Shown one piece after another: positions 30,761 to 55,955 of a stretch of DNA of 64,000 bases (its first letter is position 1; each line of letters begins with the position of its first letter). This DNA comes from Spirochaetia bacterium (lineage in GTDB: Bacteria; Spirochaetota; Spirochaetia; DSM-2461): NCBI GenBank assembly GCA_963668315.1, contig OY764216.1, forward strand, positions 5,216,001 through 5,280,000, given 5' to 3'. Position numbers and translations under genes: made by a program. The notes under the pieces were generated by a model that saw nothing but the letters and a program-made list of their open reading frames with translations, ran no database searches and was not told the origin of the DNA.

Positions 30761-30789
30761 GGGACCGTCTTGCAAGGCGGTCCCTTTTT
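30761..30789. terminator. Terminator between the convergent GH3 and GH95 genes
   Basis: GGGACCGTCTTGCAAGGCGGTCCC followed by TTTTT. Confidence 0.75.
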
Positions 30790-33020: not shown

Positions 33021-33023
33021 ATA

Positions 33024-34732: not shown

Positions 34733-34788
34733 TATTCAACCTTGTTTGCACAGTATACCCCCCCGGGGAACGGGGGGAAATTCCCGAA

Positions 34789-36132: not shown

Positions 36133-36268
36133 ATAAACCTCCAGGAAAATGAAAAAATAATAATATTGTTTGATTCATTATATACCCTATATACCAGCTG
36201 TCTATGCACATAAAAAGACGGATTTTGCACTTTCCGGATATCGGGAAGAGACCTTTTTAAAGCTTTGT

Positions 36269-36298
36269 TTGACAGAAAAAGAAGCTTACTTATATAAT
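36269..36298 (+). promoter_or_regulatory. Consensus sigma70 promoter of the two-component operon
   Basis: TTGACA (36269)-N18-TATAAT (36293). Confidence 0.75.
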
Positions 36299-36316
36299 CA
36301 TTCAATAATAAATACA

Positions 36317-38101
36317 ATGAAACTAAACGTATCGGTCAAATTTTTCCTCATGTTTTTTCTCTTTGCCGCCGTCACCATAGGCGGATACTCGTTCTATCTG
36401 TCCCACTATTTCTCCCGTGTCCTCATAGAGAGGGAATTCACCTCTTTCAAGGCCCTGAGCACCAGCTTTCTCTCCCAGACGGAAAGCTCCCTGCATGTCA
36501 TGGACGATATCTCCATCAATATCTTCTATTCCAATCTGATCCAGGACAGCTTTGACCGCTATGTGGGGGAATATCCCGAAAACAGGGACAGCTATGAAAG
36601 GCTCCTTGACCTTTTCATCGCCCTCAACGGGGCTAACCTGACCCTCCCCTTCATCGCCGTCTACAGCAATGAGGGAGATAAAATAGGCATGGGCAACTAC
36701 ACGACCAGGGAGAAAGTCGATCTTACCGCCCTCCCCTGGGTGAATAAAGCCAGGGAAGCCAATTACCACAAATACCTGAGCCGGCCCTACGAATCCAATA
36801 TGATGCAGAGCAGCCAGCGGGTCTCCCCCTATTACATCTCCCTGTACCGGGAATTCTGCGACGAAGGAGGCAGGGCGAAAGGCTTTATCGAGACGGCCCA
36901 GTATGCGGATAAAGTATTCGAGGGCATCACCGCCTATAGAAAAAGAACCCCGGGAGAACTCAAGGTCTACGTATTCAACGAAGAGGGGGATCAGCTCTAC
37001 CCCTACGGAACCGGGCCGATCGACAGGATGACCGGGATCTACTATCTGGATCTGGGATGCCGGGCGGCATCCCCCGAAGCGTACAGGAACCCCTACACGG
37101 GGGAGCGGGAGCTTCTCCACGGGCAGAAATCCTCCTACACGGGGTGGACCTACGTCTGCGTGCAGGATCTGGACAGCGTTCTTCTTTCGGTGAGAGACGT
37201 ATCCCGCCCTCTCTTTTTCGTGACCATGATCGTGATGACGATTATCATTTTCATCTCCTGGTACCTCTCGAGCAGCATAACCCGGCCCATCAGAGAGCTT
37301 CTGGGGAGAATCCACGCCACCAGCATAGACACCCTTTCCAGCGAGAAGAACCGGCTCAACTCCTCCTATAACGAATTCGACGAACTCAACGACGCCTTCT
37401 ACTCCATGAACGAAAAGATCAAGCGGTCCATGGATGAATTGCTCCACTCCCGCCAGCGGGAATCGGAATCGCGCTACCTGGCCCTTCAATCCCAGATCAA
37501 TCCCCACTTCTACTACAACTCCCTGTCCAGCATCATCGCCCTGACCGAAGCGGGAAGGCAGGAGGATGTGGTCCGGTTCTGCACGAACCTGAGCCGCATC
37601 ATGCGTTACGTGGCCGCCCCTGAACCTAAAACGGTGCCGCTCCGGGATGAGATCGAGTACGCCGAGAAATACCTTTTCTGCATGAAAGTCCGCTACCAGT
37701 CCAGCCTGACCTACCGTATCGGGATGGATGAGGAACTGCTCGACGAGCCGATACCCAAGCTGATCATACAGCCCCTCATAGAAAACGCCCTGAAGCACGG
37801 CACGGACTGCCCCCCTCCCTGGCACATAGAGATAGGCGGCGAGAAATCTCCCGAAGGATGGATCATCCGTGTCAGCGACAACGGGCGGGGATTCCCCCGG
37901 GAGATTCTGGAAAGGATCAACCGTCCCGGCGGGGGATCAGGGGAGGGGGCAGACGGGGAAGGCGGCCTCGGCCTGCCCAACGTCTGCGCCCGCTGGAGAA
38001 TCTTCGCCGGAGACCGTTACTATTTCCGGGCTGAGAACCGGGAACCGGGCTGTTCCGTGACTCTGGGGATGACGGGAAAGGAAAAAGCTGATGGAAAATA
38101 A
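36317..38101 (+). CDS. YesM-like sensor histidine kinase
   Basis: Two TMs, HAMP, ALQSQINPHFYYNSL, QPLIENALKHG, DNGRG; start reassigned to ATG 36317. Confidence 0.93.
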   Translation: MKLNVSVKFFLMFFLFAAVTIGGYSFYLSHYFSRVLIEREFTSFKALSTSFLSQTESSLHVMDDISINIFYSNLIQDSFDRYVGEYPENRDSYERLLDLFIALNGANLTLPFIAVYSNEGDKIGMGNYTTREKVDLTALPWVNKAREANYHKYLSRPYESNMMQSSQRVSPYYISLYREFCDEGGRAKGFIETAQYADKVFEGITAYRKRTPGELKVYVFNEEGDQLYPYGTGPIDRMTGIYYLDLGCRAASPEAYRNPYTGERELLHGQKSSYTGWTYVCVQDLDSVLLSVRDVSRPLFFVTMIVMTIIIFISWYLSSSITRPIRELLGRIHATSIDTLSSEKNRLNSSYNEFDELNDAFYSMNEKIKRSMDELLHSRQRESESRYLALQSQINPHFYYNSLSSIIALTEAGRQEDVVRFCTNLSRIMRYVAAPEPKTVPLRDEIEYAEKYLFCMKVRYQSSLTYRIGMDEELLDEPIPKLIIQPLIENALKHGTDCPPPWHIEIGGEKSPEGWIIRVSDNGRGFPREILERINRPGGGSGEGADGEGGLGLPNVCARWRIFAGDRYYFRAENREPGCSVTLGMTGKEKADGK

Positions 38102-38882
38102 GTACTCCGTGGTTATCGCCGAAGACGAAGAGCTTCTGCTGGACAACATCGTCGGCCGGGTCAACTCCCTGGATCTGGGGTTCCACGTGGTGGGCCGGGC
38201 CCAGACGGGCGACGGGGCCCTGGAAGAGATCCGCCTCCATACGCCGGACCTTCTGATAACCGATATCCGCATGCCGGTCATGGACGGGATGAAACTCCTG
38301 ACGCGGGTGACAAAGGAATTCCCCACGGTGAAGACGATCATCCTCAGCGGATTTTCCGACTTCGACTATGCGAAGAAAGCCCTGAATCTCGGGGTAAGCG
38401 AGTATCTTCTCAAACCGGTGGACCGGGAGGAACTGAGCACGGCCCTCCTTCAGGTGAAGACCCAGCTGGACCTGGACAGGGAGTCCTACGCCAGCCTTTT
38501 CGACCTGCCCCCATCCTGCACAAAGGAGCAGATTGCCGAGACCCTGAAAGAGTATATCCGCACCAATTACGACAAGAACATCAATCTGGATGAGATCACC
38601 TCCATGATGAACTACAGCGCCGGATACCTGACCAAAATATTCTGCCGCATCTACGGGGTAAGCCCGAACAAATATCTCATTTCCCTGCGGATACACAAGG
38701 CGCAGCACCTGCTCGTGCATAACCCGGAACTGGCGGTGCAGCAGATCGGCGAACTGATCGGTTACACGGAGATCAGCTACTTCAGCAGGATTTTCAAGAA
38801 GTACACCGGCATCAGCCCCGGAACCTACCGGGAGGAGGAGCGTAAAAAACTGTTTTCCCCGAGGAATGAGATCTTTCCCTGA
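38091..38882 (+). CDS. YesN-like response regulator (REC + AraC HTH)
   Basis: AEDE, TDIRMPVMDG, KP, YFSRIFKKYTGISP. Confidence 0.95.
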   Translation: MENKYSVVIAEDEELLLDNIVGRVNSLDLGFHVVGRAQTGDGALEEIRLHTPDLLITDIRMPVMDGMKLLTRVTKEFPTVKTIILSGFSDFDYAKKALNLGVSEYLLKPVDREELSTALLQVKTQLDLDRESYASLFDLPPSCTKEQIAETLKEYIRTNYDKNINLDEITSMMNYSAGYLTKIFCRIYGVSPNKYLISLRIHKAQHLLVHNPELAVQQIGELIGYTEISYFSRIFKKYTGISPGTYREEERKKLFSPRNEIFP

Positions 38883-39010
38883 AAAAGGTTTCGATTATCT
38901 TCGTTATTCCCCATTTCCAGCGGTTCTGTTGCTTTTTATCCGCCCCCAATATATAATAATAAAAATAAAACGAAAGTGATTCTTGAGAGAGACAGATCAG
39001 GGGAGTTTTC

Positions 39011-39775
39011 ATGTTAGCAGAACAGCGCAGAGAGAAAATCGTGGAATTAATCCGGGAAAACGGCAATGTCCGGGTTAGCTACCTCAGTAACCTGTTCCAG
39101 GTTTCCGAACCGACCATCAGACAGGATCTGATGAAAATAGAGGCAGGCGGAGAGATCGCCCGCGACCACGGCGGAGCCTACCTGAAAAACACCCATAACA
39201 GCGTGAAAACCCTTTCCCTCCAGCACAGGGAGAATATGGATCTGAAACAGAAGATCGGCAGGAAAGCCGCCGAGTTCATCAGGCCCGAGACATCGATCAT
39301 ACTCGATTCGGGAACCACGGTGACCGAGCTGGCGAAGAACATAACCGGCCAGAAGCACCTGCGTATCATCACCAACAGCCTCAACATCGCCCTGATCCTG
39401 GGAGCCGAGCCTGAGATGGAAGTGCATATGACGGGAGGGGAATTCAAATCCCCCACCCTCTCCCTCACCGGGGACAAGGCGGCCATGTTCTTCAACAATA
39501 TGCATGCGGACCAGCTCTTTCTGGCCGCCGCGGGAATAACCCTCAAGGGGGGGCTCACCTATCCGGGTTTCTCCGATCTGCCGGTGAAGCAGGCCATGCT
39601 GAATTCCGCCGAGGAAGTGTACCTGCTCGTCGATTCCACCAAGATCAACAAGCCCGCTTTCGCCGCCCTTAAAGCGCTGGACCAGCTCGATTACCTCATC
39701 ACCGACGGGGGCATAAGCGAGAAGGACAAGGCGGCTTTCGAAAAAATAGGCATCAAGGTCATCATCGCCGAATAA
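39011..39775 (+). CDS. DeoR/GlpR-family regulator
   Basis: VSEPTIRQDL, HGGA, LDSGTT, ITNSL, VDSTK. Confidence 0.95.
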   Translation: MLAEQRREKIVELIRENGNVRVSYLSNLFQVSEPTIRQDLMKIEAGGEIARDHGGAYLKNTHNSVKTLSLQHRENMDLKQKIGRKAAEFIRPETSIILDSGTTVTELAKNITGQKHLRIITNSLNIALILGAEPEMEVHMTGGEFKSPTLSLTGDKAAMFFNNMHADQLFLAAAGITLKGGLTYPGFSDLPVKQAMLNSAEEVYLLVDSTKINKPAFAALKALDQLDYLITDGGISEKDKAAFEKIGIKVIIAE

Positions 39776-39827
39776 TATACCCCGGGCCTCGAGTCCTTCG
39801 GGGATTTCCTTTGCAGGAGAGTAAATA

Positions 39828-42359
39828 ATGATTCGTCCTTTCCCCATGAATCAGGTTTCCGTCAGCGACGCGTATCTGGCCAATGCCTTTGAAAAGGAGC
39901 TGGCCTACCTGAGAAGCTACAATCCGGACAGGCTTCTCAGTTATTTCAGGACCAATGCCGGACTCAGCAGCAAGGACGCCCCCTACCCGGGCTGGGAAGA
40001 CACGGAGATAAAAGGCCATACCCTGGGCCACTATCTGAAAGCCCTCTCCCAGGCCTATATCAACAGGAGGGACAGGGATATTCTGGAGCGGCTCCACTAC
40101 ATGATCGATGAGCTGGCCCTCTGCCAGAGAGAGGACGGCTATCTCTTCGCTTCGGAGGAGTCCTATTTTGACCGGGTGGAGGAGCAGAAACCCGTCTGGG
40201 TTCCCTGGTATACCATGCACAAGATCCTGGCAGGCCTCACCTTCACCTACGAAGCGACCGGCTACCCCGCGGCGCTGGAGACGGCCTCCCTCCTGGGAGA
40301 CTGGGTATCCCGTCGTACCGCTTCCTGGACCGAGGAGATCCGCTCCCGGGTCCTGGCCCTGGAGTACGGGGGAATGAATGACGCCCTTTACGACCTCTAC
40401 CGTCTGACCGGCAGGGAGTCCCACCTCAGAGCGGCCCGGGCCTTCGACGAGCTGACCCTCTGGGAACCCCTGAGGGAGGGGCGGGATGTCCTCCCGGGAA
40501 AGCATGCCAATACGACCATTCCCAAAATTGTGGGCGCCCTGAACCGCTATCATATCACCGGAGACGAAGCCGCCCTTGAAACGGCGGTCCGCTTCTGGGA
40601 CATGGTCGTTTCCCACCACAGCTACATAACGGGAGGAAACAGCGAATGGGAGCACTTCGGCAGGCCCGATATCCTTGACGCCGACCGGTCCCGCTACACC
40701 TGCGAAACCTGCAACACCTACAACATGCTCAAACTGACCCGCGGGCTCTTCGCGGCCACGGGAGACGGAAAATACGCCGATTTCTATGAGCGCACCTTCA
40801 TAAACGCCATTCTCTCCTCCCAGCATCCCGAGTCGGGCATGACCATGTATTTCCAGCCCATGGCCGCGGGGTATTTCAAGGTCTACAGCTCCCCCTTCGA
40901 CCACTTCTGGTGCTGCACCGGCACGGGCATGGAGAATTTTTCCAAATTGAACGACAGCCTCTTCTTCCATGAGAACGGCACGCTGTATGTGAATATGTAC
41001 TTCTCCTCCCATCTGGAATGGAAGGAGAGGGGCCTCAAGCTGACCATGAAAGCCGACCTGACCGTCAGCGATAAAATCACCCTGACCGTCGAAAGCGCCT
41101 CATCGGAAGAGAAGAACCGCATTCTCCTCCGAATCCCCCCCTGGACAAAAGGCACCCCCCTTCTGACCCTCAACGGGTCTCCCTGCCCCTGCCCTGTGGA
41201 AGGGGGATACGCCGTCCTTGACAGGGTATGGCGGGGCGACGACCGGATAACCCTGCGGCTGCCCATGGAAGTCAGGGCGCATACCCTGCCGGATAATCCC
41301 GCCGCCGCGGCCTTCCGGTACGGTCCCTACGTTCTGAGCGCCGCCCTGGGCCGGGAGGATCTCTCCCTCTCCCGGACGGGAGTCATGGTGGACGTCCCCA
41401 CGAAGGAGATGATCATCCAGGACTTTCTGACCCTGACCGAAGGGACTCCCGCCGCATGGCTCTCCCGCATCGGGGAGAATGCCCTGAAGGACGGGGAGAA
41501 GCCGGAGTTCCGCCTGACCGGCATTGCCGAGGGGGATTCCCTTCTCTTCACCCCCCACTACCTCCAGCACAACGAACGGTACGGCCTTTACTGGAATCTC
41601 GTGGAAAAGGATTCCCCCGAGGTCCAGAAGCATTTGAAAGACCGCAAGGACGCCTCCCTCCTGGCCGGCTCCACCGTTGATTCCCTGCCCGTCGGCAACG
41701 ACCAGTACGAGCTGACCCATCAAATCGCCGGGGAGAAGACCTACACCGGCACCTGGGACGGCTACAACTACCGCTGCGCCGACAGGGAAGGATGGTTCCG
41801 CTATACCCTCGGCGTCGTACCCGGGGAGGAAACCCTTCTCATGGTCAAATACTTCGATTTCGACCGGGAACGGCCGGTGTACATAGACATAGACGGGGAA
41901 CCGGCCTTCACGGAGACGGGCGATTTTCCCGGAAACAGGGAGTTCATTGACCGGATATACCCCATTCCCTCCTCCCTGACCAGGGGAAAAGGAAGCGTGA
42001 CCCTGACCTTCCGCGCCGGCAAGGAGAGCAAGACCGCCGGAATCTACCACATCCTCAGGACCCTGAAAAAGGCTTCCGCCGATGCCCGCCTCTCCTCGCT
42101 TACCCCTGCGGGACTTACGCTGGACGAGCCATTCAACCCGGAAAAAACCGGCTATACCCTGGTGGGGACGGGGGGCAGAACCTCCTTTCCCCTCAGACTG
42201 ACGCCGGCCGCCCGGAACGCCCTGGTCTATGTGGACGGGATACTCATTGACGATACGCAGACACGGACGATTCCCCTCTCCCCAGGGAAAGGGACAATCG
42301 AAATCCGGGTGGTCGCCGAGGACAGGAAAACCGAAAGGCTTTACACTCTCCGCGGGTAA
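39828..42359 (+). CDS. GH127/GH146 beta-L-arabinofuranosidase-like protein
   Basis: GHTLGHYL, WYTMHKI, EYGGMN, HANTTIP, CETCNTYNMLK, FWCCTGTGME; C-terminal beta-sandwich domains. Confidence 0.9.
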   Translation: MIRPFPMNQVSVSDAYLANAFEKELAYLRSYNPDRLLSYFRTNAGLSSKDAPYPGWEDTEIKGHTLGHYLKALSQAYINRRDRDILERLHYMIDELALCQREDGYLFASEESYFDRVEEQKPVWVPWYTMHKILAGLTFTYEATGYPAALETASLLGDWVSRRTASWTEEIRSRVLALEYGGMNDALYDLYRLTGRESHLRAARAFDELTLWEPLREGRDVLPGKHANTTIPKIVGALNRYHITGDEAALETAVRFWDMVVSHHSYITGGNSEWEHFGRPDILDADRSRYTCETCNTYNMLKLTRGLFAATGDGKYADFYERTFINAILSSQHPESGMTMYFQPMAAGYFKVYSSPFDHFWCCTGTGMENFSKLNDSLFFHENGTLYVNMYFSSHLEWKERGLKLTMKADLTVSDKITLTVESASSEEKNRILLRIPPWTKGTPLLTLNGSPCPCPVEGGYAVLDRVWRGDDRITLRLPMEVRAHTLPDNPAAAAFRYGPYVLSAALGREDLSLSRTGVMVDVPTKEMIIQDFLTLTEGTPAAWLSRIGENALKDGEKPEFRLTGIAEGDSLLFTPHYLQHNERYGLYWNLVEKDSPEVQKHLKDRKDASLLAGSTVDSLPVGNDQYELTHQIAGEKTYTGTWDGYNYRCADREGWFRYTLGVVPGEETLLMVKYFDFDRERPVYIDIDGEPAFTETGDFPGNREFIDRIYPIPSSLTRGKGSVTLTFRAGKESKTAGIYHILRTLKKASADARLSSLTPAGLTLDEPFNPEKTGYTLVGTGGRTSFPLRLTPAARNALVYVDGILIDDTQTRTIPLSPGKGTIEIRVVAEDRKTERLYTLRG

Positions 42360-42396: not shown

Positions 42397-43272
42397 CTAC
42401 CGGAAGCGGGCGATGATCTCCCTCAGGCGGACGAGGGACTTCTCATGGCCGAACTGGGCGATCATTAAAAGGAGCTCCTTCAGCTGGTAAAGGGGCAGCC
42501 GCTCCCGCCAGCCGGGGATCAGCCCGTAGGATTCGTCGTACCCCTCGTAGAAAGCCTCGGGGAAAACCTTGTAGAGCTGGGTATTGGCCAGATCCGCCTC
42601 GGGATGGCCGTAATGGAGGGCCGGATCGATCAGGACGATGCCCCCTCCGACCTTCTTGAAGACATTGTTCATCCAGAAATCCCCGTGGCAGACAGCCGGG
42701 GGCAGATCGGGAACCAGATCCTTCATCTTCAGAAATATCCCCTCTATCCCCGCGATATCGTCGGCCGTGATGAACTCCCCGTTCCTCCCCGCGTCATAAT
42801 AGCAGGAGACCCGGTTCTTATAATAGAAATCGACCCAGTCCTTCTCGGGGGTGTTCTTCTGCGTCCAGATTCCCAGATAGTTATCGAAGGGATAACCGTA
42901 ATAATCCATCTTTCCCCTGTGAAGAGCACCGAAATCCCGGCCGAAATCGAACCAGTCCTCATCGTCCGCCTCCTCAGCTTCCGGGCCCAGATCCTCCATC
43001 AGCAGAATCCCCTCCGAAACGCCCAGCACCCGGGGAACGGTCACCGTACCGGTCCCGCCCATCCTCTCCAGAGCCTCCGCCTCAAAGCGGAAAAGATCGG
43101 GAATATCCTCCTTGCAAACCTTGGCGATCCAGGTCCTGGAATCGGATCTCAGCCGGAAAATATGATTGGCGGCACCGGAAGTCAGATACTCCCACGCCCT
43201 CAGGGGCTCTCCCATAAGCGCCGTCAGCTCCTCGGCCTGCCCGTCGTTCAGCTCAGGTTTTTCTTCTTCCAT
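42397..43272 (-). CDS. Fructosamine kinase family protein
   Basis: CHGDFWMNN, LIDPALHYGHPEADLA, RLPLYQL; start taken at MEEEK. Confidence 0.85.
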   Translation of the reverse strand: MEEEKPELNDGQAEELTALMGEPLRAWEYLTSGAANHIFRLRSDSRTWIAKVCKEDIPDLFRFEAEALERMGGTGTVTVPRVLGVSEGILLMEDLGPEAEEADDEDWFDFGRDFGALHRGKMDYYGYPFDNYLGIWTQKNTPEKDWVDFYYKNRVSCYYDAGRNGEFITADDIAGIEGIFLKMKDLVPDLPPAVCHGDFWMNNVFKKVGGGIVLIDPALHYGHPEADLANTQLYKVFPEAFYEGYDESYGLIPGWRERLPLYQLKELLLMIAQFGHEKSLVRLREIIARFR

Positions 43273-43445
43273 AAAACACTCCTGCCAAGGATCATACCAC
43301 ATAAATAAATCCTGGCAAATCCGCGCCGCCTGCGCCGCCGCGGACCGGACTATCCGCTCGAAGGGGCTTGTCTCCGGCCCTCACTCCCTCTTCCTCCCGT
43401 CAGAGGGGCGCCGGAGGCCCCTAACCGCTCCTATTCCTTTTGCGT

Positions 43446-44726
43446 CTACGCCTCTTTCAGAATCTTCTGCTCAATAAGGGGAGACTCCTTCAGAAAGAGA
43501 ACCAGTCCCAGGGAGATCAGGGAGAGAAGGGCAAACAGTCCCATCATATCCTTCAACCAGAGATTCGACCTCAGGCTCATCATGGCGGTGAATACCATGC
43601 CGGAGATCTGCCCCGCGAGAAGCAGAAGTCCCTGGGAGGAGGATTCCGGAGCGGGATGGCTCACCTCGGCGGCGTACTGGAACCCTATGGGACCGGCGCT
43701 CATAACGAAAAACCCCAGGAGAAAGGAAGAGACCAGGGCCGCGGTGTAAACCGATCCGGAAGCCGAAAACAGTCTGTCCGCAAAGGCCAGTCCCGCCAGA
43801 GCGGGGACCATGCCGGCCATATTAATGACCAGAAAGAGTTTTCGCTTTCTCAGTTTGTCCGAGAGGATGGGAAGGATCAGAGCGCCGAGGATCCCCCCGG
43901 CTATCATGAGGACGCCGATCATCCCGTCCGAATCGGCCACGCCCAGGGAACCGGAAATCGAATCGACCATGGAACTGACCGCATTGAAGATGCCCAGGCC
44001 GATGAAGAAGAGAATCAGGGTAAAGACCATGTCCCTCCGCCCGAAGATATAGCGGAAGCCTTCGGTGAACTTCACGTGGCTCCGGTTTTCCTCCTCCCCC
44101 GAGGTGCGGGGCCTTTCCCTGATAAGGAAAAAGGCGGCCAGCGCGACGGCGGCGCTTATGATGCCGTAGAGCCTGAGCATGGAACCCAGCCCCTGCCCGT
44201 AGGACGGGTCTTCCGGGGAGCAGACGACCAGGAGGGGGGTAATCCCCATGGCGGCGATAATTCCCAGATACTGGGCCAGGGACGCCAGCCCGGTGGCCGT
44301 GCCCCGCTCCTCCAGGGGAAACCAGCGGGCGGCCGTGGCCGTCACGCCGTTCAGAAGAAAGGGCTGCGCCGCAGCCAGTCCGACCTGGGCCCACAGCACG
44401 ACAAGAAAAGAGTCCCCCCCGAAGCCTTTGACAAGGCTGAAGACGGCGGTCATGAAACAGCCCGCCCCCAGGCCGACCCTGATCCCCTTCGTATCGATCA
44501 CATAGGAAGCGGGCAGGGAGACGGCCAGATAGACAATCATGTAGGAGAGGGCCAGAAAATCGATATTGAAAAGGGAATCGGGATTGAACTGGCCTTCGTA
44601 GAAAACGGAGGCCGCCCGGGAAACGGCCGCCACGGCCAGCCACTGAAGCTCGATAATCACGGTAACCCCCATAAGGGCCGCCAGGACTATCCACCGGTAC
44701 GGGGGGTAATGATCGCCTTTTTCCAT
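43446..44726 (-). CDS. MFS transporter (FLVCR-like signature)
   Basis: About 12 TMs; YRWIVL, AQPFLLN...AARWFPLEERGTATG, AAEVSHPAPE. Confidence 0.9.
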   Translation of the reverse strand: MEKGDHYPPYRWIVLAALMGVTVIIELQWLAVAAVSRAASVFYEGQFNPDSLFNIDFLALSYMIVYLAVSLPASYVIDTKGIRVGLGAGCFMTAVFSLVKGFGGDSFLVVLWAQVGLAAAQPFLLNGVTATAARWFPLEERGTATGLASLAQYLGIIAAMGITPLLVVCSPEDPSYGQGLGSMLRLYGIISAAVALAAFFLIRERPRTSGEEENRSHVKFTEGFRYIFGRRDMVFTLILFFIGLGIFNAVSSMVDSISGSLGVADSDGMIGVLMIAGGILGALILPILSDKLRKRKLFLVINMAGMVPALAGLAFADRLFSASGSVYTAALVSSFLLGFFVMSAGPIGFQYAAEVSHPAPESSSQGLLLLAGQISGMVFTAMMSLRSNLWLKDMMGLFALLSLISLGLVLFLKESPLIEQKILKEA

Positions 44727-44741
44727 ATCCTCTCCTTTTCT

Positions 44742-46340
44742 CTACCTGTTCATCCGGTAGAACAGATTCCGGTTTTTCCTATACAGCTCCCGAAAGACAC
44801 GGTACTGCTTCTCATAGACGGCCCTGTCCTTCCGGTCGGGACGGAAGCGTTCCTTCAGGGGTATCATGGCCGGGATTTCTTTCGGGGAGTCGATCCATCC
44901 CATCCCCCACGCCGCAATCAGCGCGGCCCCCAGAGCCCCGGCGTTATGGGGGTTTTCGGGAACTTCCAGCTCCCGCCCCGTCACATCGGCGAGGATCTGC
45001 GCCGTAACCGGGGACAGGGCTCCTCCCCCCACGAAGCGCAGGACATTCTGCCGGGGAATTCTCTCTTCGATGCTCTCAAGCATCCACCGGCTGTTATAGG
45101 CCAGTCCCTCCACCACGGCGCGGATCATCTCGCTCTTTCCCGTATTCAGTCCCAGGTTGAAGAACATTCCCCGGGCATGGGGATCCTCGAAGGGAGACCG
45201 GTTCCCGTGGAGCCAGGGAGTGAAAAGCACATCCCCCGATCCGGCGGGAGTTCCCCCAATCACTTCGTTGAGATATTCAAAAAGGTTGCGGTAAATCGAT
45301 TCGGGATCGTCGGCCACGGAGATTTTCTCCAGATAGATGCCTATCTCGTCTATGGCCAGATGGTCCCGCACCCATTCCAGGCACTTGCCCGAGGTCTCCT
45401 GCTCACAGAAGTAGTGGAAACGTCCCGGCACGGCGCAGGTGATGGAAGCGATTTTCCTCTTAATATCCAGCATGCGCCTGTCCGTGACGGCCGAGACCCA
45501 CCCGGATGTTCCCATATAGATATGGGTGCGGTTCTTCTCCACGGCTCCCGCTCCCAGGCCTATGGTGGACGCATCGCCCCCTCCTCCGAAGACAGGGGTG
45601 TCTTCCGCCAGCCCCATCCGCGCGGCCATGGTTCCCGTCAGCCCGCCGGCCACCTGGCTCGAACCGATAATCCGGGGCAGATGGCCCGGGTCGACTCCGT
45701 AGGCACGGCAGAGGGGAAGACTCCAGCATCCCCGTCCCGGGCGGTTGTCGAAAAGGCCCGTGGCACAGGCCGAATCCTCCGTGCAGACCGCTTCCCCGGT
45801 AAGGCGGTAGATAAGGAAATCCTTCACATCCAGCCAGTAATTTATCCAGGAAAACAGCTCCTTCTCGTTCTCCTTCACCCAGAGATACTTCCACAGGGGA
45901 TCTTTAACGCTGGTGGGAGCGATGCCGGTAACAGCGATGGAACGGGCCAGGAGAAGGGGCGGAATATCGTCTATACCGGGTCCCCGGGAAAATTTTCTCT
46001 TAACCTCCACGGCCCTCTGGTCCATATAGCTCATGGCGGGCCTCAGGGGCATACCGTCCCGGCCGACCAGAACAAGCCCCTGCATCTGGGAGGAAAAGGA
46101 GAGCCCCTTAATAGCCGAGGGGGAGACGCCCGTCTCCTCAAGAATCCTCCCGGTCGTCAGGATCAGGGCATCCACCCACTCCTCCGGGTTCTGTTCGGCC
46201 CTTCCCCCCTCTTGTATCTTGATGGGATAGGACTCCATGGCGCTTCCGATCAGTTCGGCGGGAGATCCCATCCGATAAAGGCAGGATTTGGTGCTGGTGG
46301 TGCCCACGTCAAAGGCCAGGATCAAAGACTCACCCGTCAT
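44742..46340 (-). CDS. FGGY-family carbohydrate kinase
   Basis: FDVGTTSTK, AEQNPEEW, SSQMQG, MDQRA, GGGGD, VGGGA. Confidence 0.93.
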   Translation of the reverse strand: MTGESLILAFDVGTTSTKSCLYRMGSPAELIGSAMESYPIKIQEGGRAEQNPEEWVDALILTTGRILEETGVSPSAIKGLSFSSQMQGLVLVGRDGMPLRPAMSYMDQRAVEVKRKFSRGPGIDDIPPLLLARSIAVTGIAPTSVKDPLWKYLWVKENEKELFSWINYWLDVKDFLIYRLTGEAVCTEDSACATGLFDNRPGRGCWSLPLCRAYGVDPGHLPRIIGSSQVAGGLTGTMAARMGLAEDTPVFGGGGDASTIGLGAGAVEKNRTHIYMGTSGWVSAVTDRRMLDIKRKIASITCAVPGRFHYFCEQETSGKCLEWVRDHLAIDEIGIYLEKISVADDPESIYRNLFEYLNEVIGGTPAGSGDVLFTPWLHGNRSPFEDPHARGMFFNLGLNTGKSEMIRAVVEGLAYNSRWMLESIEERIPRQNVLRFVGGGALSPVTAQILADVTGRELEVPENPHNAGALGAALIAAWGMGWIDSPKEIPAMIPLKERFRPDRKDRAVYEKQYRVFRELYRKNRNLFYRMNR

Positions 46341-46990
46341 TGTTCCAGCCGCTGTTTCGAATATTTCTTCAAATAAATCTGATGCATGAGGGCCGCCTCA
46401 AACCGATTGATCGACTTGGCCCCTCCCAGGAATTCGGCCTCGATGAAGGCCTTGCAGCCCTTATCCAGCACTTCGCAGCAGACAAAGGCCTCCTCCATAT
46501 CCCGCCCCAGGCAGACAGCCCCGTGATTGGCCATGAGCGCCCCGTTTCGTCCGCGCAGGGCTTTCAGGGTCTTCCGTACAATGGCTTTCGTGCTGGGAAG
46601 GGCATAACCGGCGACCCTCACCGTAGGCCCGATCAGCTGAGCCAGATCGTCCAGGACGGGAGGAACCTCCCTCCGGGCGGCGGCGGCCACGCTGGCATTG
46701 GGGCTGTGGTTATGAATAACGGCGCCGATCTCCTTCCTTTCCCGGTAGATCGCCGTATGAAGCTTATATTCGCTGGAAGGCTTGCGCCCCGTCCACTCCT
46801 CCGTTTCGATATTCACCAAGGTGAGGTCTTCCGGTTTAATTTTCACATATTCCAGTCCGCTGGGAGTCACAAGCATCTCCGTTTCGGAAAGGCGCACACT
46901 CAGATTCCCCCAGGTCCCCGAAGTCAGACCCGCTTCGACCAGCCTCAATCCGCTCTGCAGAAGGAGTTCCCTTCCTCTCTCGACATTCAT
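46337..46990 (-). CDS. Class II aldolase/adducin family protein (FucA-like)
   Basis: GTWGNLS, TPSG, PSSEYKLH, IHNHS, ANHGA (Zn-binding His residues present). Confidence 0.92.
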   Translation of the reverse strand: MNVERGRELLLQSGLRLVEAGLTSGTWGNLSVRLSETEMLVTPSGLEYVKIKPEDLTLVNIETEEWTGRKPSSEYKLHTAIYRERKEIGAVIHNHSPNASVAAAARREVPPVLDDLAQLIGPTVRVAGYALPSTKAIVRKTLKALRGRNGALMANHGAVCLGRDMEEAFVCCEVLDKGCKAFIEAEFLGGAKSINRFEAALMHQIYLKKYSKQRLEQ

Positions 46991-47003
46991 GCGTCCTCCT
47001 CTC

Positions 47004-48464
47004 CTAGACGGAGCTTTTCACCCGGGAGAAAACCCGGTCGAAGCGCTCAAGGGCATCGTCGACGACCTCTTCACTGTCCTGGGCGCTTGTATACAGCCGG
47101 CTTCCCGCCAGGGTGATGATCCCCTCCGCCGTATAGGCGGCGCCGTAGATTTCCATGACTTCCTTTCGGGCCCGGGCTTCTCGTATCGTCTCCTTGATCG
47201 TCCAGAATCTCTTCAGATCTATGTCCAGAAGCATGGCCGCCCCCGTTTCCAGATGGCAGATGGCGCCCTGGTTGAAAGCGACAAAGGGCAGCTTGTACTT
47301 ATCCATGATTTTCTTAAGCCCTTCGGTCAGCCTGTCGGCGGCGGCTCCTGCTTTGACGCAGCTGTCCTGCTTCTCCATTTCGCAGATGGTGAAATACCCC
47401 GCCGCCGAACTCAGGGGGTTGGCCGCCATGGTTCCTCCCACGAGGGCCTTCTTCTGACCGCTCTGAAGTCCGGCGGCCAGAAACTTCATGAACTGCTCCT
47501 TACCGCCCAGTCCGCCGGCCGAGGGGTATCCCCCCGCCACGATCTTTCCGAAAACGGTCAGGTCCGGTTCCACCCCGAAATACCCCTGGGCTCCGGACAT
47601 GCCGATTCTGAAGGCGGTAACCACCTCGTCGAAAATCAGCAGGGCGCCGTACTTATCGCACAGGGCACGCACGCCCGCGTTGAAATCCCTGTCCAGAGGC
47701 CTGGTTCCGCTCTCCGGGCCGACCGGCTCGATGAGAACAGCCGCGGTCCCTCCCCTCAGCCGGTTTCTCCTGAGAACCCCTTCCAGGCTGTTGAGATCGT
47801 TAGGATAGAACTCCTGGGTCTGTTTGAAGACATGGCGGGGAACGCCGTGGGCTTCCAGATGCATGGTCCCGGGCAGGCGGATGCCGTAGGCCAGCTGGTC
47901 GCTCCATCCGTGGTAGGCACCTCCCATCTTCACGACATTCTTATGCCCCGTGGCCAGACGGGCGACCCGTATGGAAGCCATGCAGGCTTCCGTACCGCTG
48001 CCGAGCATACGGAACAGATCCACCGAGGGATAAAGCTGGGCAATCTTATCGGCCAGTTTGTACTCGTATTCATGGAAAAGCCCCGTCACGGGACCGGTGG
48101 TATTGAGCAGCTCCACCACCTTTTCCCTCACCTCCGGCATATTGCTCCCGAGCAGAGTGGGACCGCCGGCCTGAAGAAAGTCGATATAGCGGTTTCCGTC
48201 CAGGTCGTAGAGGTAGGCCCCCTCCGCCCTTTCCATAACCAGAGGAAAGGGGTGGTTGAAGGCCAGGTTGTGCTGAACACCTCCGGGGATCCGGGTCTTT
48301 GCCTTCTCTATCATCTCCCGGGATCGGGTGCATTTCTTTTCGAAGTAGCCGTCCACCTCCTCCACATAGGACGATTCGGGCATCAGGACGGGCCGGGATA
48401 CCAGCCTCTTCAGTTCGGCGGTAACCTCCGCCGCATCGGGATAGCGGGAAATGGAAAAACTCAT
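47004..48464 (-). CDS. Class III PLP aminotransferase, GSA-aminomutase-like
   Basis: GAYLYDLDGNRYIDF, SGTEA, YHG, IFDEVVT, FGKIVAGG; GGAGG RBS before ATG 48464. Confidence 0.9.
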   Translation of the reverse strand: MSFSISRYPDAAEVTAELKRLVSRPVLMPESSYVEEVDGYFEKKCTRSREMIEKAKTRIPGGVQHNLAFNHPFPLVMERAEGAYLYDLDGNRYIDFLQAGGPTLLGSNMPEVREKVVELLNTTGPVTGLFHEYEYKLADKIAQLYPSVDLFRMLGSGTEACMASIRVARLATGHKNVVKMGGAYHGWSDQLAYGIRLPGTMHLEAHGVPRHVFKQTQEFYPNDLNSLEGVLRRNRLRGGTAAVLIEPVGPESGTRPLDRDFNAGVRALCDKYGALLIFDEVVTAFRIGMSGAQGYFGVEPDLTVFGKIVAGGYPSAGGLGGKEQFMKFLAAGLQSGQKKALVGGTMAANPLSSAAGYFTICEMEKQDSCVKAGAAADRLTEGLKKIMDKYKLPFVAFNQGAICHLETGAAMLLDIDLKRFWTIKETIREARARKEVMEIYGAAYTAEGIITLAGSRLYTSAQDSEEVVDDALERFDRVFSRVKSSV

Positions 48465-48473
48465 GGGACCTCC

Positions 48474-48531
48474 AGTAAGTGAGCGCTCACTCACTTACTT
48501 TTCAGAATAGCACAGAAAAGGGGAATGTCAA
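48474..48531 (-). promoter_or_regulatory. Promoter and palindromic TetR-type operator of the aminotransferase operon
   Basis: Minus-strand TTGACA (48531-48526)-N16-TATTCT with TG extension; AGTAAGTGAG-N6-CTCACTTACT at 48474-48499. Confidence 0.8.
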
Positions 48532-48533
48532 GT

Positions 48534-49184
48534 TTAATCCCTTGGTCTCAAAGCATTTTCTATAAAAGCGAGCAGTCCTTTGACGATTCTTTCATCATCG
48601 TCGAAAATTGTTTCGGAAATGTAAATTTTCATACGGTCCCGGTAGTACTCCGAAGCATAGGAGAACTGAAGGGTCATGAACAGACTGTCCAGACAGAAGG
48701 CGGCCACTCCCGTATCGACGGAGGAACTTATCACCCCCTCCTTCTGCGCCTGGTCAAGAAGGCCCCTGTAGTACCGGGCCGAAAGGGATTCCACCTGATA
48801 GGAGAGACGGGAGGCCAGCTCGTTGTTCGCTTCGGTGGTTATCTCATTATAAAGATTGACCAGCTGACCGTATCGGCGGGAGTGCTCCTGGATAAACCGC
48901 AGGAGCCTCTCTATTTTAACGAAGAAATCCCCCCCCGAAGCTTCCAGAGATTCAAAGCTTTCGGAGATTTGCTCTACGGCCTGGGAACAGACGGAAAGGA
49001 ACAAATTCTCCTTGGTGCCGAAATATTTGTAAAGGGCGCCCACGCTGACACCGCATTTATCGGCGATGATGTTGATATTGGCAGATTTGAAGCCGAGTCG
49101 GGAAAACTCATCGGTAGCCCCGTGGAGAATCCGCTGCTGCTTCTCCTCCGGGAGCCGGTCAAAAAGTTCGGTATGATAGGTCAT
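48534..49184 (-). CDS. TetR/AcrR-family regulator
   Basis: IADKCGVSVGALYKYFGTKENLF. Confidence 0.95.
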   Translation of the reverse strand: MTYHTELFDRLPEEKQQRILHGATDEFSRLGFKSANINIIADKCGVSVGALYKYFGTKENLFLSVCSQAVEQISESFESLEASGGDFFVKIERLLRFIQEHSRRYGQLVNLYNEITTEANNELASRLSYQVESLSARYYRGLLDQAQKEGVISSSVDTGVAAFCLDSLFMTLQFSYASEYYRDRMKIYISETIFDDDERIVKGLLAFIENALRPRD

Positions 49185-49277: not shown

Positions 49278-51143
49278 TTATTCGCTCAGAGCAAGCCGTG
49301 CGGCCATGCGCCCCGAACCGAAGGCAAAGCCCAGGGTGATTCCTTCCACCGTGGGATAGGTATTATTGTAAAGCTCCGCCACATCGTTTCCGCTGACATA
49401 GAGTCCGGGAATGATCGTGCCCTTTTCAGAAAGGACATGCAGGCTGCTGTCCACGGCTATTCCTCCGATCTGTCCCAGAGAGACGGGAATGGTAAGAACC
49501 GCATAGAAGGGACCTTCCGTCTGTTCGATCATGTAGCGGGCCTCTTTGCCGTACATGGGATCGACTCCTTCCCGGGCAAAGCCGTTGTACTGGTCGAAAG
49601 TCTTCTTCAGAACCGAGGGATCGACGTCGATCTTTCCGGCCAGTTCTTCCAGGGTCTCCCCTTTGACAACGGTGCCTTCGGCCGTGCCCTTCTCCAGGGA
49701 AGCGGTCAGGCCGGTCCAGGGTTCGGATACGGGGTACAGGGGAATTCCCACCTGATAATTGACATCGGGAATATCTCCGTAGGTTTTCACCGGGCCGTTC
49801 TGCTCCAGATCCTTTATCACGTTGGCAGACATGACAGCGTAATAGGATTCTCCCTGGGCATAGGCGGCATTGGATGTCAGAGCCGTATCAAAAACGATGT
49901 CCTCTTCGACGAAGCGGAACCCGTTATGGTTAATGAAAACCGATGCGGGGAAATAGGCAAGATAGGTCAGGGGCTCTCTCTCGGGAACATTGGGAACATA
50001 ACCGGGAACGGTAACTCCGTGAAGCTCGCTTATGGCATTGCCCTCGCCCGCTCCGATAGCCCGGGTCATGGTAATGGCGTCGCCGGTCTGGGTTCCGGTG
50101 GTAATATTCATCAGATCAAAACCGTTGAATTCCCTGACAAGCTCCTTATTGGCTCCGGCTCCTCCGGTGGCAAGAATAACGGCGCGGCTCTTTATCTGAA
50201 GTATGGTGCCGTCACCCTGCTTTGCTTCCACACCGCAGATTTTCTCACCCTCTTTGTTCAGTTTGGTAGCCGTCGTATCGTAATAGATTTCACCGCCCCT
50301 CTCCTCAACGATCTTAAGGGCATTCTGGAAGTATTCCAGTTTTTTCGCCTGATCGGCATAGGCATGGTAAACGGGATATCCTTCGCTGTGGGCGGCCTGT
50401 TCAAAACCGACATAGGTAAAATCAAAGCCATTGGCCTCCAGCCAGTCCGCCGTATCTCCGGAATTTTCAAAAACGGAGTAAAACAGATTGCCGTCGGAAA
50501 GGTAGGCATTGTACTCCTGCCAGGTTCTCAGCACGTCCTGTATGGAAAAATCCGGGGTATATCCGGCGTTTTTCATCTCCGCGGAGTTCAGGGCGAAAAT
50601 ACCGCCGGCCAGCTTTGAGGCGCCGCCGGGGACAGGGGCCTTTTCCAGCACGATGACAGAGGCGCCCTCTTCCGTGGCTTCCAGGGCGGCGGCGGTTCCC
50701 GCCGCACCGGTTCCTATGATAACGACATCCGCCGAGAGTTGCTTCACCTCACCGGATTCGGTCTTTTCAGCAGCGACCATCAGGGCATCCATATCGACTC
50801 CGCTTTTGCTGAGAGCATCCTTGACGGCCGCGATAATGCCGTCGGAAGCAAGAGTAGCTCCGGTTATGGAATCCACGGACAAGCTCTGCTGCTCAATTAT
50901 CCTGCCGGGAATTTCCTTCATGGCGGTTCCCGCGATGGCCGGAGTTTCCGACTCTTCCACTACTTCGATTTTCTTGATACTGTCACTGGAAACGGTTACT
51001 TCCACGACAATATCGCCGTTTCTGCCTGAGCCGGTTCCCTGATAAGTGCCCGGGGTAAAGGACAGGTTGCTTCCCTTTCCTCCGCAGGAGAACAGCACCA
51101 GCGCCATCAGCAGGGCGCCTAAGACGGTTAACGCTTTTTTCAT
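49278..51143 (-). CDS. Lipoprotein flavin reductase: FMN-binding domain + FAD-binding (flavocytochrome c/fumarate reductase-like) domain
   Basis: Lipobox LFSC; GTYQGTGSGRNG; flavinylation motif VDSITGAT; IGTGAAG; LATGG; IPGLYVSGN; AFGSGR. Confidence 0.9.
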   Translation of the reverse strand: MKKALTVLGALLMALVLFSCGGKGSNLSFTPGTYQGTGSGRNGDIVVEVTVSSDSIKKIEVVEESETPAIAGTAMKEIPGRIIEQQSLSVDSITGATLASDGIIAAVKDALSKSGVDMDALMVAAEKTESGEVKQLSADVVIIGTGAAGTAAALEATEEGASVIVLEKAPVPGGASKLAGGIFALNSAEMKNAGYTPDFSIQDVLRTWQEYNAYLSDGNLFYSVFENSGDTADWLEANGFDFTYVGFEQAAHSEGYPVYHAYADQAKKLEYFQNALKIVEERGGEIYYDTTATKLNKEGEKICGVEAKQGDGTILQIKSRAVILATGGAGANKELVREFNGFDLMNITTGTQTGDAITMTRAIGAGEGNAISELHGVTVPGYVPNVPEREPLTYLAYFPASVFINHNGFRFVEEDIVFDTALTSNAAYAQGESYYAVMSANVIKDLEQNGPVKTYGDIPDVNYQVGIPLYPVSEPWTGLTASLEKGTAEGTVVKGETLEELAGKIDVDPSVLKKTFDQYNGFAREGVDPMYGKEARYMIEQTEGPFYAVLTIPVSLGQIGGIAVDSSLHVLSEKGTIIPGLYVSGNDVAELYNNTYPTVEGITLGFAFGSGRMAARLALSE

Positions 51144-54718: not shown

Positions 54719-54858
54719 GCGATTAATCGATCCTCAGTTTTATTATAGAACAGGGCAGGCAAAGAAGCCAGTTCATTTTATTTTCCTTTCGATCAATTAC
54801 TTCCTTGACAAGAGGGAGAAGGAGGACCGATACTGTTCCTCATCTGCAGGGTAGGAAA

Positions 54859-55863
54859 ATGGCCACAATCAAAGACATAGCAAAAAGAGCCGGCGTCGCC
54901 GTCAGTACGGTCTCCTATGCCATAAGCGGGAACCGGCCCATCTCTGAGGAGGTCAAGAAAAGGATCCGCCAGGCCATGGCCGAGCTTGACTACCAGCCCA
55001 ACCCCATGGCCCGCGCCCTGGCCGGCAAGGGAACCCGTATCCTGGGGCTGATACTGGACCCTCTGGACAGAAGCCTGGGCATTACCGAAATCGACCTCCT
55101 TTCCCGGGCGGCCGAGGCAGCCCGGTCCATGAACTACCATCTGACGCTTCTGACCGATGACTCCCGGAACCTGAGCGTTCTCGAAGAGATCATCGCCGAT
55201 AAGCTTTTCGACGGCTTTATCCTGATGGAGATCCACAAGGAGGATGAACGGGTCCGCTTTCTTTCAGAGAAAGGGCTTCCCTTCGTCATTATCGGTCGGG
55301 ACGATAGGACCCAGGACTTCCGGTCCATCGATATAGATTTCCAAAAGACCGCAGAGCAGGTTCTCGCCCATGTGAAGGAGAAGGGTCACAGGGAAGCGGG
55401 CTTCATCAACCAGAGTCTCAATGCGTTCAACAGGGGGTACGGTCCCGCCGTGGCCATGAAGGCATCCCTCGAAGATACGGCCCGCAGGCTGGGCATAAAG
55501 CTTGATACCCGGTTCTGCCTTCCCTCCCGGGAAGAGGGGGAGAATGTCGCGGTCACCCTTCTTAGAGACAACCCCGCCCTTTCCGTCCTTCTTGTCATGA
55601 ACGACCAGGCCCTTCCGGGAATTCTCAAGGGAATATCAGCCCTTGGCCTCTCCGTTCCGAAGGACCTCTCCCTTATATCCCTTCTGAGCTCCTCCAAGCT
55701 GGCCGAAATGTTTCACCCCTCCCTGACCCACATGGAAATCCCCAGCCGGGAACTGGGATGGCACGGAGTCTGCCGTCTCGTGGAAATACTGGAGGGACGG
55801 CAGGAAAACCGCGGCATGATCCTCATACCCGGCACTCTTCACATCGGGGAAAGCACAATCTGA
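54859..55863 (+). CDS. LacI-family regulator
   Basis: MATIKDIAKRAGVAVSTVS, YQPNPMARAL, VPKDLS. Confidence 0.95.
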   Translation: MATIKDIAKRAGVAVSTVSYAISGNRPISEEVKKRIRQAMAELDYQPNPMARALAGKGTRILGLILDPLDRSLGITEIDLLSRAAEAARSMNYHLTLLTDDSRNLSVLEEIIADKLFDGFILMEIHKEDERVRFLSEKGLPFVIIGRDDRTQDFRSIDIDFQKTAEQVLAHVKEKGHREAGFINQSLNAFNRGYGPAVAMKASLEDTARRLGIKLDTRFCLPSREEGENVAVTLLRDNPALSVLLVMNDQALPGILKGISALGLSVPKDLSLISLLSSSKLAEMFHPSLTHMEIPSRELGWHGVCRLVEILEGRQENRGMILIPGTLHIGESTI

Positions 55864-55874
55864 GGATTTTCACA

Positions 55875-55919
55875 TTGACAAAGGTCGATGGCGGCTGTAT
55901 TCTTGTCGAAACGTTTCGA
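55875..55919 (+). promoter_or_regulatory. Promoter and LacI-type operator of yicI
   Basis: TTGACA (55875)-N17-TATTCT; perfect palindrome TCGAAACGTTTCGA at 55906-55919. Confidence 0.85.
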
Positions 55920-55955
55920 TAGAGATTATATTCCACCTTAATTAAAGGAGTGTCC

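Follow-up and report, generated by a model that had tools for sequence, protein, structure and literature searches.

Which substrate is consumed by an operon that joins an aminotransferase to the kinase and class II aldolase of sugar-degradation routes? The question is raised by a five-gene locus of a Spirochaetia bacterium (GenBank assembly GCA_963668315.1, contig OY764216.1, positions 5,216,001 to 5,280,000; this whole stretch of 64,000 nucleotides is referred to as the window). Downstream of a TetR-family repressor gene, four closely packed genes encode a class III aminotransferase, a class II aldolase, an FGGY kinase and a carrier of the major facilitator superfamily (MFS). A sequence-only reading of the window had proposed that they break down amino-polyols or sphingoid bases. 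We confirm the five genes, which all lie on the minus strand and whose Pfam families agree with the gene types it had named. As for their role, we see about an even chance that the TetR-repressed operon imports a phytosphingosine-type amino-triol, deaminates it, phosphorylates it at C1 and cleaves it to dihydroxyacetone phosphate (DHAP) and a fatty aldehyde.

The proposed pathway

In the proposed pathway, the FLVCR-like carrier would take up a long-chain 2-amino-1,3,4-triol, and an inducer would release TetR. The aminotransferase would then move the C2 amine to a 2-oxo acid, taking the place of the isomerase in the fucose route. The FGGY kinase would phosphorylate C1, and the aldolase would cut the C3-C4 bond, yielding DHAP and the fatty aldehyde. 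We infer the reactions, their order and the substrate from the gene content, its conservation, the operator and the intact catalytic residues described below.

A transaminase followed by a kinase and an aldolase requires a 2-amino-1,3,4-triol, just as a transaminase followed by a transketolase requires a 2-amino-1,3-diol. Among natural compounds, the common pair that fits is phytosphingosine with sphinganine/sphingosine. A sister operon under the same regulator family would handle the bases that have no 4-hydroxyl. The stereochemistry appears compatible with this assignment. FucA-type aldolases make 3R,4R diols (PMC11274987), and by our reasoning the ketone of (2S,3S,4R) D-ribo-phytosphingosine would have the same 3R,4R configuration. 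Its 1-phosphate would correspond to 5-deoxyribulose-1-phosphate with a longer tail, a compound of the type on which the closest aldolase of solved structure acts.

Conservation of the gene set

Three scans of GTDB contigs (the best 80 of about 770-870 stretches in each) and ten regions of the window's order gave, after removal of 34 duplicates, 209 distinct loci including the window. According to the record titles, they belong to Bacillota, Spirochaetota, Desulfobacterales, Actinomycetes, SAR324, a Bacteroidetes bin and Hydrogenedens. The aminotransferase loci with at least 4 kb on both sides (n = 148) contain the aldolase in 135 cases, the kinase in 95, TetR in 76, the carrier in 40 and all five genes in 21. 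The grouping is not a matter of chance, since the same partners recur in these 148 related loci. Conservation of the gene set, which the sequence-only reading had named as a check, is thus found in a multi-phylum family. Where the locus lacks a kinase, all five genomes tested encode a 50-53% identical one elsewhere. The spread is patchy: carriers of the aminotransferase make up 11 of 31 genomes of the window's order, 45 of 251 of its phylum and, besides the centre genome, 7 of 199 sampled Clostridia.

Several variants of the arrangement were observed. Where three Leptospira loci have no aldolase (L158, L200, L230), the kinase is followed by an APH-like gene and then by a GlpD-like FAD dehydrogenase gene; a gene of the latter type faces the aldolases in two other spirochaete loci (L003, L007). 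In high-GC actinomycete bins (L093, L073, L074), long open reading frames span aminotransferase and aldolase sequence; these may be fusions or calling artefacts.

The aminotransferase

The best NCBIfam and PDB matches of the aminotransferase are glutamate-1-semialdehyde (GSA) aminomutases (E 2e-63). The scores nevertheless stay far below the cut-offs for HemL (261.8 vs 527.3 bits for TIGR00713, 286 vs 398 for NF000818). No gene of this genome reaches the HemL cut-off, and five other carriers each hold a much better HemL match elsewhere in the genome (477-654 bits). In a tree of 32 proteins, in which the row HemL_L303 was disregarded as a wrong-frame extract, a 96% branch separates the 18 family members from HemL. 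The HemL motifs VNSPVR and SWGP as well as the gating loop are replaced in the family.

K307, the lysine that binds pyridoxal phosphate (PLP), D279-E280, E251 and R456 are invariant in 77 sequences, a residue set characteristic of class III omega-type transaminases. In the alignment, Glu251 and Arg456 fall on a Glu and an Arg that ArgD-type enzymes use to bind the 2-oxo acid and that HemL lacks. The residues indicate that the enzyme most likely works as an ordinary transaminase. We reject its identification as HemL on the basis of the scores, the separate clade, the replaced motifs and the better HemL of other carriers. The sequence-only reading had likewise set the enzyme apart from HemL, pointing out the absence of tetrapyrrole genes nearby; none are present among the open reading frames of 33000-60000. 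The window enzyme is also not of the FumI type, as FumI (6HBS) is found at rank 37 with E 2e-25, far below the GSA aminomutases.

The aldolase

In FucA, phosphate binding and catalysis involve Asn29, Thr43, Gly44, Ser71, Ser72, Glu73, three His residues and Tyr113' of the neighbouring subunit (PMC11841055). The window aldolase retains N29, S44, G45, S72, S73, E74, H93, H95 and H156, which cover the phosphate pocket, the Glu and the three His. A FucA-like enzyme had been proposed from the sequence, and the preserved pocket for a ketose-1-phosphate, together with the metal site, supports this. The FucA equivalog cut-off is missed (best model 141 vs 264 bits). The best solved match is 6BTD (E 6e-33), which is DrdA, a 5-deoxyribulose-1-phosphate aldolase (PMC6079011).

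The window aldolase combines two sets of motifs in one chain: the catalytic set, and a set formed by LDDxAQ and the C-terminal tail. Only 16 of the 209 loci, the window included, have such a single chain. A tandem fusion is present in 150 and two separate genes in 15, while 22 loci have no aldolase call and 6 could not be classified. In the fused and two-gene forms, the catalytic motifs are found in one copy, and LDDxAQ and the C-terminal tail in the other, dead copy. A quick tree of 71 rows places 25 active and 25 dead copies in two clades, each at 100%, with the single-chain aldolases outside both on short branches; its root is weak because the outgroups are long branches. The window chain carries 30 residues diagnostic of the active clade and 14 of the dead clade, interleaved along the sequence. 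The simplest reading of these data would be one duplication, followed by complementary loss of the halves of the inter-subunit active site. Regardless of the substrate, the aldolase would thus present a clean case of a two-subunit active site that was divided after gene duplication.

Leptospira also contains a second, more distant split aldolase pair that is unlinked to the aminotransferase (L297:7003-8425, L298:6903-8347, L299:7075-8512). One of the two copies is active, and the other, dead one is marked by an FDEQ motif; L529 has a pair of this kind flanking a distant aminotransferase.

The kinase and the carrier

The assignment to the FGGY kinases stands, while the kinase misses every named cut-off. 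It scores 297.7 against 380.25 for XylB (TIGR01312), 77 for FucK and 28 for RhaB, and this greater closeness to XylB had gone unremarked in the sequence-only reading. Motifs of the substrate site differ from XylB (QMQG for QMHG, GDAS for GDNA), which sets the enzyme apart from the XylB type, and there are two family-specific insertions. In structure comparisons, the predicted model (pLDDT, predicted local distance difference test, 90.6) matches glycerol, gluconate and xylulose kinases alike, with Z 42-44 and root-mean-square deviations of 2.2-3.1 over ~480 residues, and rhamnulokinase with Z 35.5. Kinases acting on C1 and on the terminal carbon are not told apart by these matches. Matches in the Atlas carry FGGY names only. 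In a test for a membrane helix, the insert helix 128-138 of the model proved hydrophobic and cationic, but it did not stand out from other helices.

We infer phosphorylation at C1 from the aldolase pocket and from three Clostridia loci (L510, L513, L514). These encode an FGGY kinase, a RuBisCO-like protein and a 47-59% identical aminotransferase, with the RuBisCO-like gene occupying the place of the aldolase. RuBisCO-like proteins bind 1-phospho-2-ketones. L514 additionally contains a sugar-binding regulator and a GPH carrier.

The only solved matches of the MFS carrier are FLVCR1 and FLVCR2 (E 8e-26), in line with the likeness proposed earlier. FLVCR1 and FLVCR2 carry choline and ethanolamine, with W125, Q214, Q471 and Y349 among the residues that bind the amino-alcohol (PMC11168923). 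The equivalents of W125, Q214 and Q471 are kept in 41 of 41 carriers of the family and that of F348 in 39. The human proteins differ at Y349, the cation-pi residue, which is Asn in all 41, and at N245, which is mostly Gln. A GtrA-like four-helix membrane protein is encoded in 16 loci and never occurs with the FLVCR-type carrier (0 overlap with 45).

Predicted regulation by TetR

The four genes are tightly spaced, with 13 nt between aminotransferase and aldolase, a 4-nt overlap between aldolase and kinase and 15 nt between kinase and carrier. Both the promoter-like site and the palindrome fall within the 70-bp gap that separates TetR from the aminotransferase (Table 1). TetR had been described as immediately upstream of the packed genes, which is correct. 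We take it to form a separate transcription unit rather than a part of the four-gene row, since the predicted promoter and operator are located in this gap, and its position suggests a separately transcribed repressor of the row.

Table 1 Features of the operon and its surroundings, in window coordinates.
Feature	Position	Strand	Evidence and remarks
TetR-family repressor	48534-49184	-	Pfam TetR_N
Class III (GSAM-like fold) aminotransferase	47004-48464	-	Pfam Aminotran_3; 486 aa; ATG 48464 behind GGAGG
Class II aldolase, single-chain form	46337-46990	-	Pfam Aldolase_II
FGGY kinase	44742-46340	-	Pfam FGGY_N + FGGY_C
MFS carrier, FLVCR type	43446-44726	-	Pfam MFS_1
Predicted sigma-70-type promoter of the four-gene operon	48504-48531	-	TTGACA-16-TG-TATTCT; predicted by consensus match (10/12)
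Palindromic predicted operator	48475-48494	.	consensus GAGTGA-N4-TCACTC, immediately 3' of the -10 box
Fructosamine-kinase-family gene, downstream of the carrier	42397-43302	-	Pfam

We built a position weight matrix (PWM) of the operator from 40 sites, exclusively from loci of other genomes. The window operator is the top PWM site of the whole 5.6-Mb genome, with 27.9 bits compared to 18.5 for the runner-up. Of 125 held-out loci, 35 have the motif 5' of the aminotransferase; TetR is present in 56 of the 125, and 32 of these 56 are among the 35. None of 1338 background windows contains it. The palindrome is conserved, lies at the target promoter and goes with the regulator, as expected of a repressor-operator pair, and we regard it as the predicted operator of this TetR. 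The PWM search of this genome did not find a second strong site.

In 28 other genomes, exact operator matches occur in 13, mostly at the module itself. Six extra sites were inspected: three are intragenic, and the others lie at the unlinked kinase/carrier locus, in front of a 7TM regulator gene and in front of an efflux operon. None of the six gave a clue to the substrate. One of the intragenic matches lies ~1 kb 3' of an ethanolamine permease/EutBC cluster, away from its promoter. The efflux site, a perfect operator copy at the promoter of an HlyD/ABC operon, is found in Sedimentibacter acidaminivorans (L345:5054), where the local TetR is alike in the DNA-binding part only.

The C-terminal, ligand-binding domain of TetR matches 96 module loci and 9 further loci, 8 of which contain the sister module; no second match was found in its own genome. 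As judged from these matches, the domain is specific to the two modules. The place of TetR at the head of the operon is taken, in several families within the window's phylum, by a 7TM membrane sensor that has a GAF or AraC domain (L518-L520, L522, L523, L527, L536, L537).

Neighbouring and co-occurring genes as clues to the substrate

An ALDH3-type aldehyde dehydrogenase gene is present in 10 of 208 loci, mostly co-transcribed, and in 0 of 51 control loci. Its occurrences are dispersed over the tree, where 9 rows need 8 changes, and its nearest solved relatives include fatty and benzaldehyde dehydrogenases. This repeated recruitment suggests that the pathway releases an aldehyde, which is probably hydrophobic. 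Other neighbours include an endoglycoceramidase-like gene directly 3' of the aldolases in two Leptospira loci, an ALDH3-GPH-GPH-GH30 series after the aldolase in Paenibacillus taihuensis, and beta-oxidation genes adjoining the module in L102 and L118. Neighbouring EEP and metallophosphoesterase genes could not be assigned to sphingomyelinases.

Full-length ceramidase is encoded by 4 of 10 hand-picked carriers. Among the 251 genomes of the window's phylum, it is present in 28 of 45 carriers and 5 of 206 others, and in family f17 in 20 of 20 carriers and 5 of 17 others, statistics that overstate the association because the carriers come from three families and kin are not independent. Ceramidase, the sister module or both are found in 41 of the 45 carriers. 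In all five carriers of genus g70, ceramidase is encoded 5-7 kb upstream on the same strand, and three of these loci contain, in order, ceramidase, the 7TM sensor, kinase, aldolase, aminotransferase and carrier. Ceramidase and aldehyde dehydrogenase had been suggested as partners to look for; the latter was found repeatedly recruited, the former linked to the module in this sister clade.

A sister module under the same regulator family

The sister module, present in 16 of the 209 loci, consists of an SCP2-like gene, a GSAM-like aminotransferase, a split transketolase and another SCP2-like gene. In 7 loci it diverges from the aminotransferase gene across a common intergenic region, and in a Peptococcaceae bin it lies upstream on the same strand. 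This adjacency needs 6 changes on the tree. Of 80 GTDB loci of the sister aminotransferase, 75 contain the first SCP2-like gene, and 52 and 48 the two halves of the transketolase. Only 5 also contain the first module. Oceanirhabdus seepicola is one of the carriers of both modules. Some copies include a VOC-family gene, and in L353 the module is located amid sugar ABC and Zn-dehydrogenase genes.

The ligand-binding domain of the sister TetR matches that of the window TetR with 30-45% identity (E down to 2e-38), and an operator like that of the window precedes the SCP2 gene in eight loci (L350, L351, L381, L456, L530-L533). In the window's phylum, 15 of the 45 carriers and 4 of the 206 other genomes contain the sister module; the corresponding numbers in Clostridia are 2 of 7 and 2 of 192.

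This genome contains a shortened copy at C1:2924464-2927395 (L348:8464-11395). It comprises the first two sister genes (C1:2925441-2927395) and, beside them, an alpha/beta hydrolase gene divergent from the SCP2-like gene. FumI is the best solved match of the sister aminotransferase at C1:2926181 (6HBS, E 7e-98; next 8e-52). This enzyme deaminates a long-chain (C20) amino-polyol at C2, leaving a ketone there (PMC3136697).

Taken together, these observations lead us to a broader and more tentative scheme, to which we give slightly less than an even chance. Sphingoid bases would be broken down by a modular, oxygen-independent system under one TetR family. The 2-ketone made by a transaminase would be cut by kinase and aldolase, by transketolase with SCP2-like carriers or, once phosphorylated, by a RuBisCO-like protein, and the window aldolase would be the pre-duplication form. 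One difficulty is that ordinary transketolases act on substrates of the opposite configuration at C3; the sister route would then call for an epimerase or for an atypical enzyme.

Evidence against sphingoid bases

A number of observations weigh against a sphingoid-base pathway. Several concern the enzymes. The position of Tyr113' in FucA is occupied by Asp (Asp115) in the window aldolase. XylB, the nearest relative of the kinase, phosphorylates the far end of the sugar. Distant aminotransferases (47-59% identical) adjoin a sugar-binding regulator, a nucleoside-binding protein or a RuBisCO-like gene, and since these relatives keep sugar-type or other partners, the family may have several substrates. 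Five Leptospira genomes contain no close aldolase, the best being a 31% identical pair elsewhere, which also argues against strict co-inheritance.

Others concern the partners. Six full-length queries detected no neutral ceramidase within ~8 kb in any of the 209 loci, and a search of this genome for ceramidase, endoglycoceramidase and ALDH3 found none. The 31 genomes of the window's order, 11 of which carry the aminotransferase, yielded no full-length ceramidase and three weak partial matches. The ceramidase-headed operons represent a sister clade from one genus, with a 58-59% identical aminotransferase, a 33-36% identical aldolase and a 7TM sensor replacing TetR. The sister flanking proteins barely pass the Pfam SCP2 cut-off (22.1 and 22.3 bits vs 21.3). 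The sister genes of this genome have no adjacent transketolase, and no operator was found there among the top 25 PWM sites. The neighbours in L353, which we take to resemble FrlB/FrlD (fructoselysine deglycase and kinase), hint at an Amadori link. Single loci contain a BCCT carrier (L155) or microcompartment genes (L009). Of the pathway first proposed from the sequence, the non-HemL aminotransferase, the conserved gene set, the FLVCR likeness and the aldolase pocket have thus held, while the ceramidase partner is missing from the 209 loci.

Alternative substrates and chemistries

The most serious alternative, which we consider unlikely but far from negligible, is that the same three reactions act on a small, water-soluble 2-amino-2-deoxy-alditol, for example an amino-pentanetetrol head group, releasing DHAP and a short aldehyde. 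Such a compound would suit both the pocket of the aldolase and the transaminase equally well. FLVCR carriers move small amino-alcohols (PMC11168923), and the exchange of Tyr for Asn adds a polar group. Genes for sugar use are plentiful in this genome, where no ceramidase was found, the distant relatives adjoin a sugar-binding regulator or a nucleoside-binding protein, and one operon (L035) includes an iron-dependent alcohol dehydrogenase gene. However, the recruited dehydrogenase is of the ALDH3 rather than the lactaldehyde type. A small substrate would also leave unexplained the regulator held in common with the SCP2/FumI-like operon, the co-occurrence with ceramidase, and the presence in Leptospira, Syntrophomonadaceae and Desulfobacterales, which are fatty-acid users.

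It is improbable that the pathway runs towards condensation, where transamination of ethanolamine or a similar small amino-alcohol would yield an aldehyde that the aldolase joins to DHAP. After dephosphorylation, the XylB-like kinase would place a new phosphate on C5, and the product would enter the pentose phosphate pathway. The closeness of the kinase to XylB and the ethanolamine-binding W125 and Q214 equivalents of the carrier are consistent with this route. The aldol equilibrium favours condensation (PMC6079011). Phosphatase genes are scattered among the neighbours (His_Phos in L028/L039, HAD in L523), and the microcompartment genes beside L009 and the BCCT carrier in L155 would also fit. 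The route nevertheless needs a phosphatase from outside the conserved set, and the repeatedly recruited aldehyde dehydrogenase would drain the aldehyde it needs. It predicts no tie to the sister module or to ceramidase.

Still less probable is a different PLP chemistry. The enzyme might follow the kinase and serve as a phospho-lyase or a retro-aldolase or, jointly with the fructosamine kinase encoded downstream, be an aminomutase for amino-aldoses or Amadori compounds. The GSAM-like fold would suit such a role, and the acidic DD pair of the aldolase could bind an amine. A fructosamine-kinase gene adjoins in the window and lies near three actinomycete loci, and an APH-like gene is located 3' of the kinase in four Leptospira loci. 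The ArgD-type pair Glu251 and Arg456, absent in HemL, speaks for binding of a 2-oxo acid instead. The fructosamine-kinase gene comes with a promoter-like site to itself, 205 of the 208 other loci lack such a gene, and a lyase would leave the aldolase without a role. Finally, the possibility that the aminotransferase is the HemL of the haem pathway, with unrelated neighbours, is close to nil given the scores, clade, motifs and separate HemL of other carriers described above, although its best matches are GSA aminomutases and this genome has no gene above the HemL cut-off.

Relation to known systems

The operon would work like the routes for L-fucose/D-arabinose (FucI-FucK-FucA) and 5-deoxyribose salvage (DrdK-DrdI-DrdA, 6BTD; PMC6079011), with which it has a kinase and a class II aldolase in common, but it is not a member of either. 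It contains an aminotransferase instead of an isomerase, and its kinase stays below the FucK and RhaB cut-offs. From FucA and DrdA, the family is set apart by the Asp at the Tyr113' position in the window and by the division of the aldolase into active and dead copies in most relatives. HemL resembles the aminotransferase in fold and overall sequence family, but the latter has the Glu/Arg pair of ordinary transaminases and replaced substrate motifs.

A precedent for the proposed deamination of phytosphingosine is FumI of Sphingopyxis MTA144, a class III enzyme that converts a C2 amine to a ketone with pyruvate (6HBS; PMC3136697). The window enzyme is distant from FumI and the sister enzyme close, and the substrate of FumI has no C1 hydroxyl.

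In eukaryotes, sphingosine kinase phosphorylates C1 and sphingosine-1-phosphate (S1P) lyase releases a fatty aldehyde. This route resembles our proposal in the substrate class, the C1 phosphate and the fatty aldehyde. The enzymes are different from those of the eukaryotic route and from SphBC of Pseudomonas; in the proposed route the nitrogen would leave first, and the C3-C4 cut would give DHAP. For SphBC, the account in PMC11398299 gives the product of sphingosine metabolism as unknown. The sequence-only reading knew of no described pathway with this composition, and a literature search, mostly of open-access papers, likewise found no description of the gene set or the route.

Sphingoid bases have antimicrobial activity and are plentiful in material from plants, fungi and animals. 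Should our proposal be true, bacteria of the rumen, digesters, sediments and soils would possess a three-enzyme, directly assayable route, and TetR with its operator could serve as a reporter for finding the inducer. The window version would be the simplest test case, with all genes in one row and a single-chain aldolase.

Genomic surroundings in the window

The fructosamine-kinase gene downstream of the carrier has its own promoter-like site at 43318-43291. Only 3 other loci contain a homologue; all three are from actinomycetes, with the gene on the opposite strand, which places it outside the conserved module. Between it and the carrier gene, 3' of the latter, is a GC-rich, hairpin-forming stretch (43306-43445) with two 76-79% identical copies elsewhere in the genome. 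Directly upstream of TetR, 49278-51143 encodes a lipoprotein flavocytochrome c / FMN-binding reductase, followed by a terminator-like hairpin; it is not conserved with the module. Sugar-use genes flank the locus at 30789-42359 and 54805-58271. They include a GH127 gene with a DUF6805 domain (Pfam), and others that we take, from their sequence likeness, to be a glycoside hydrolase with an ABC carrier and a two-component pair, and a LacI-type regulator with a GH31-like gene.

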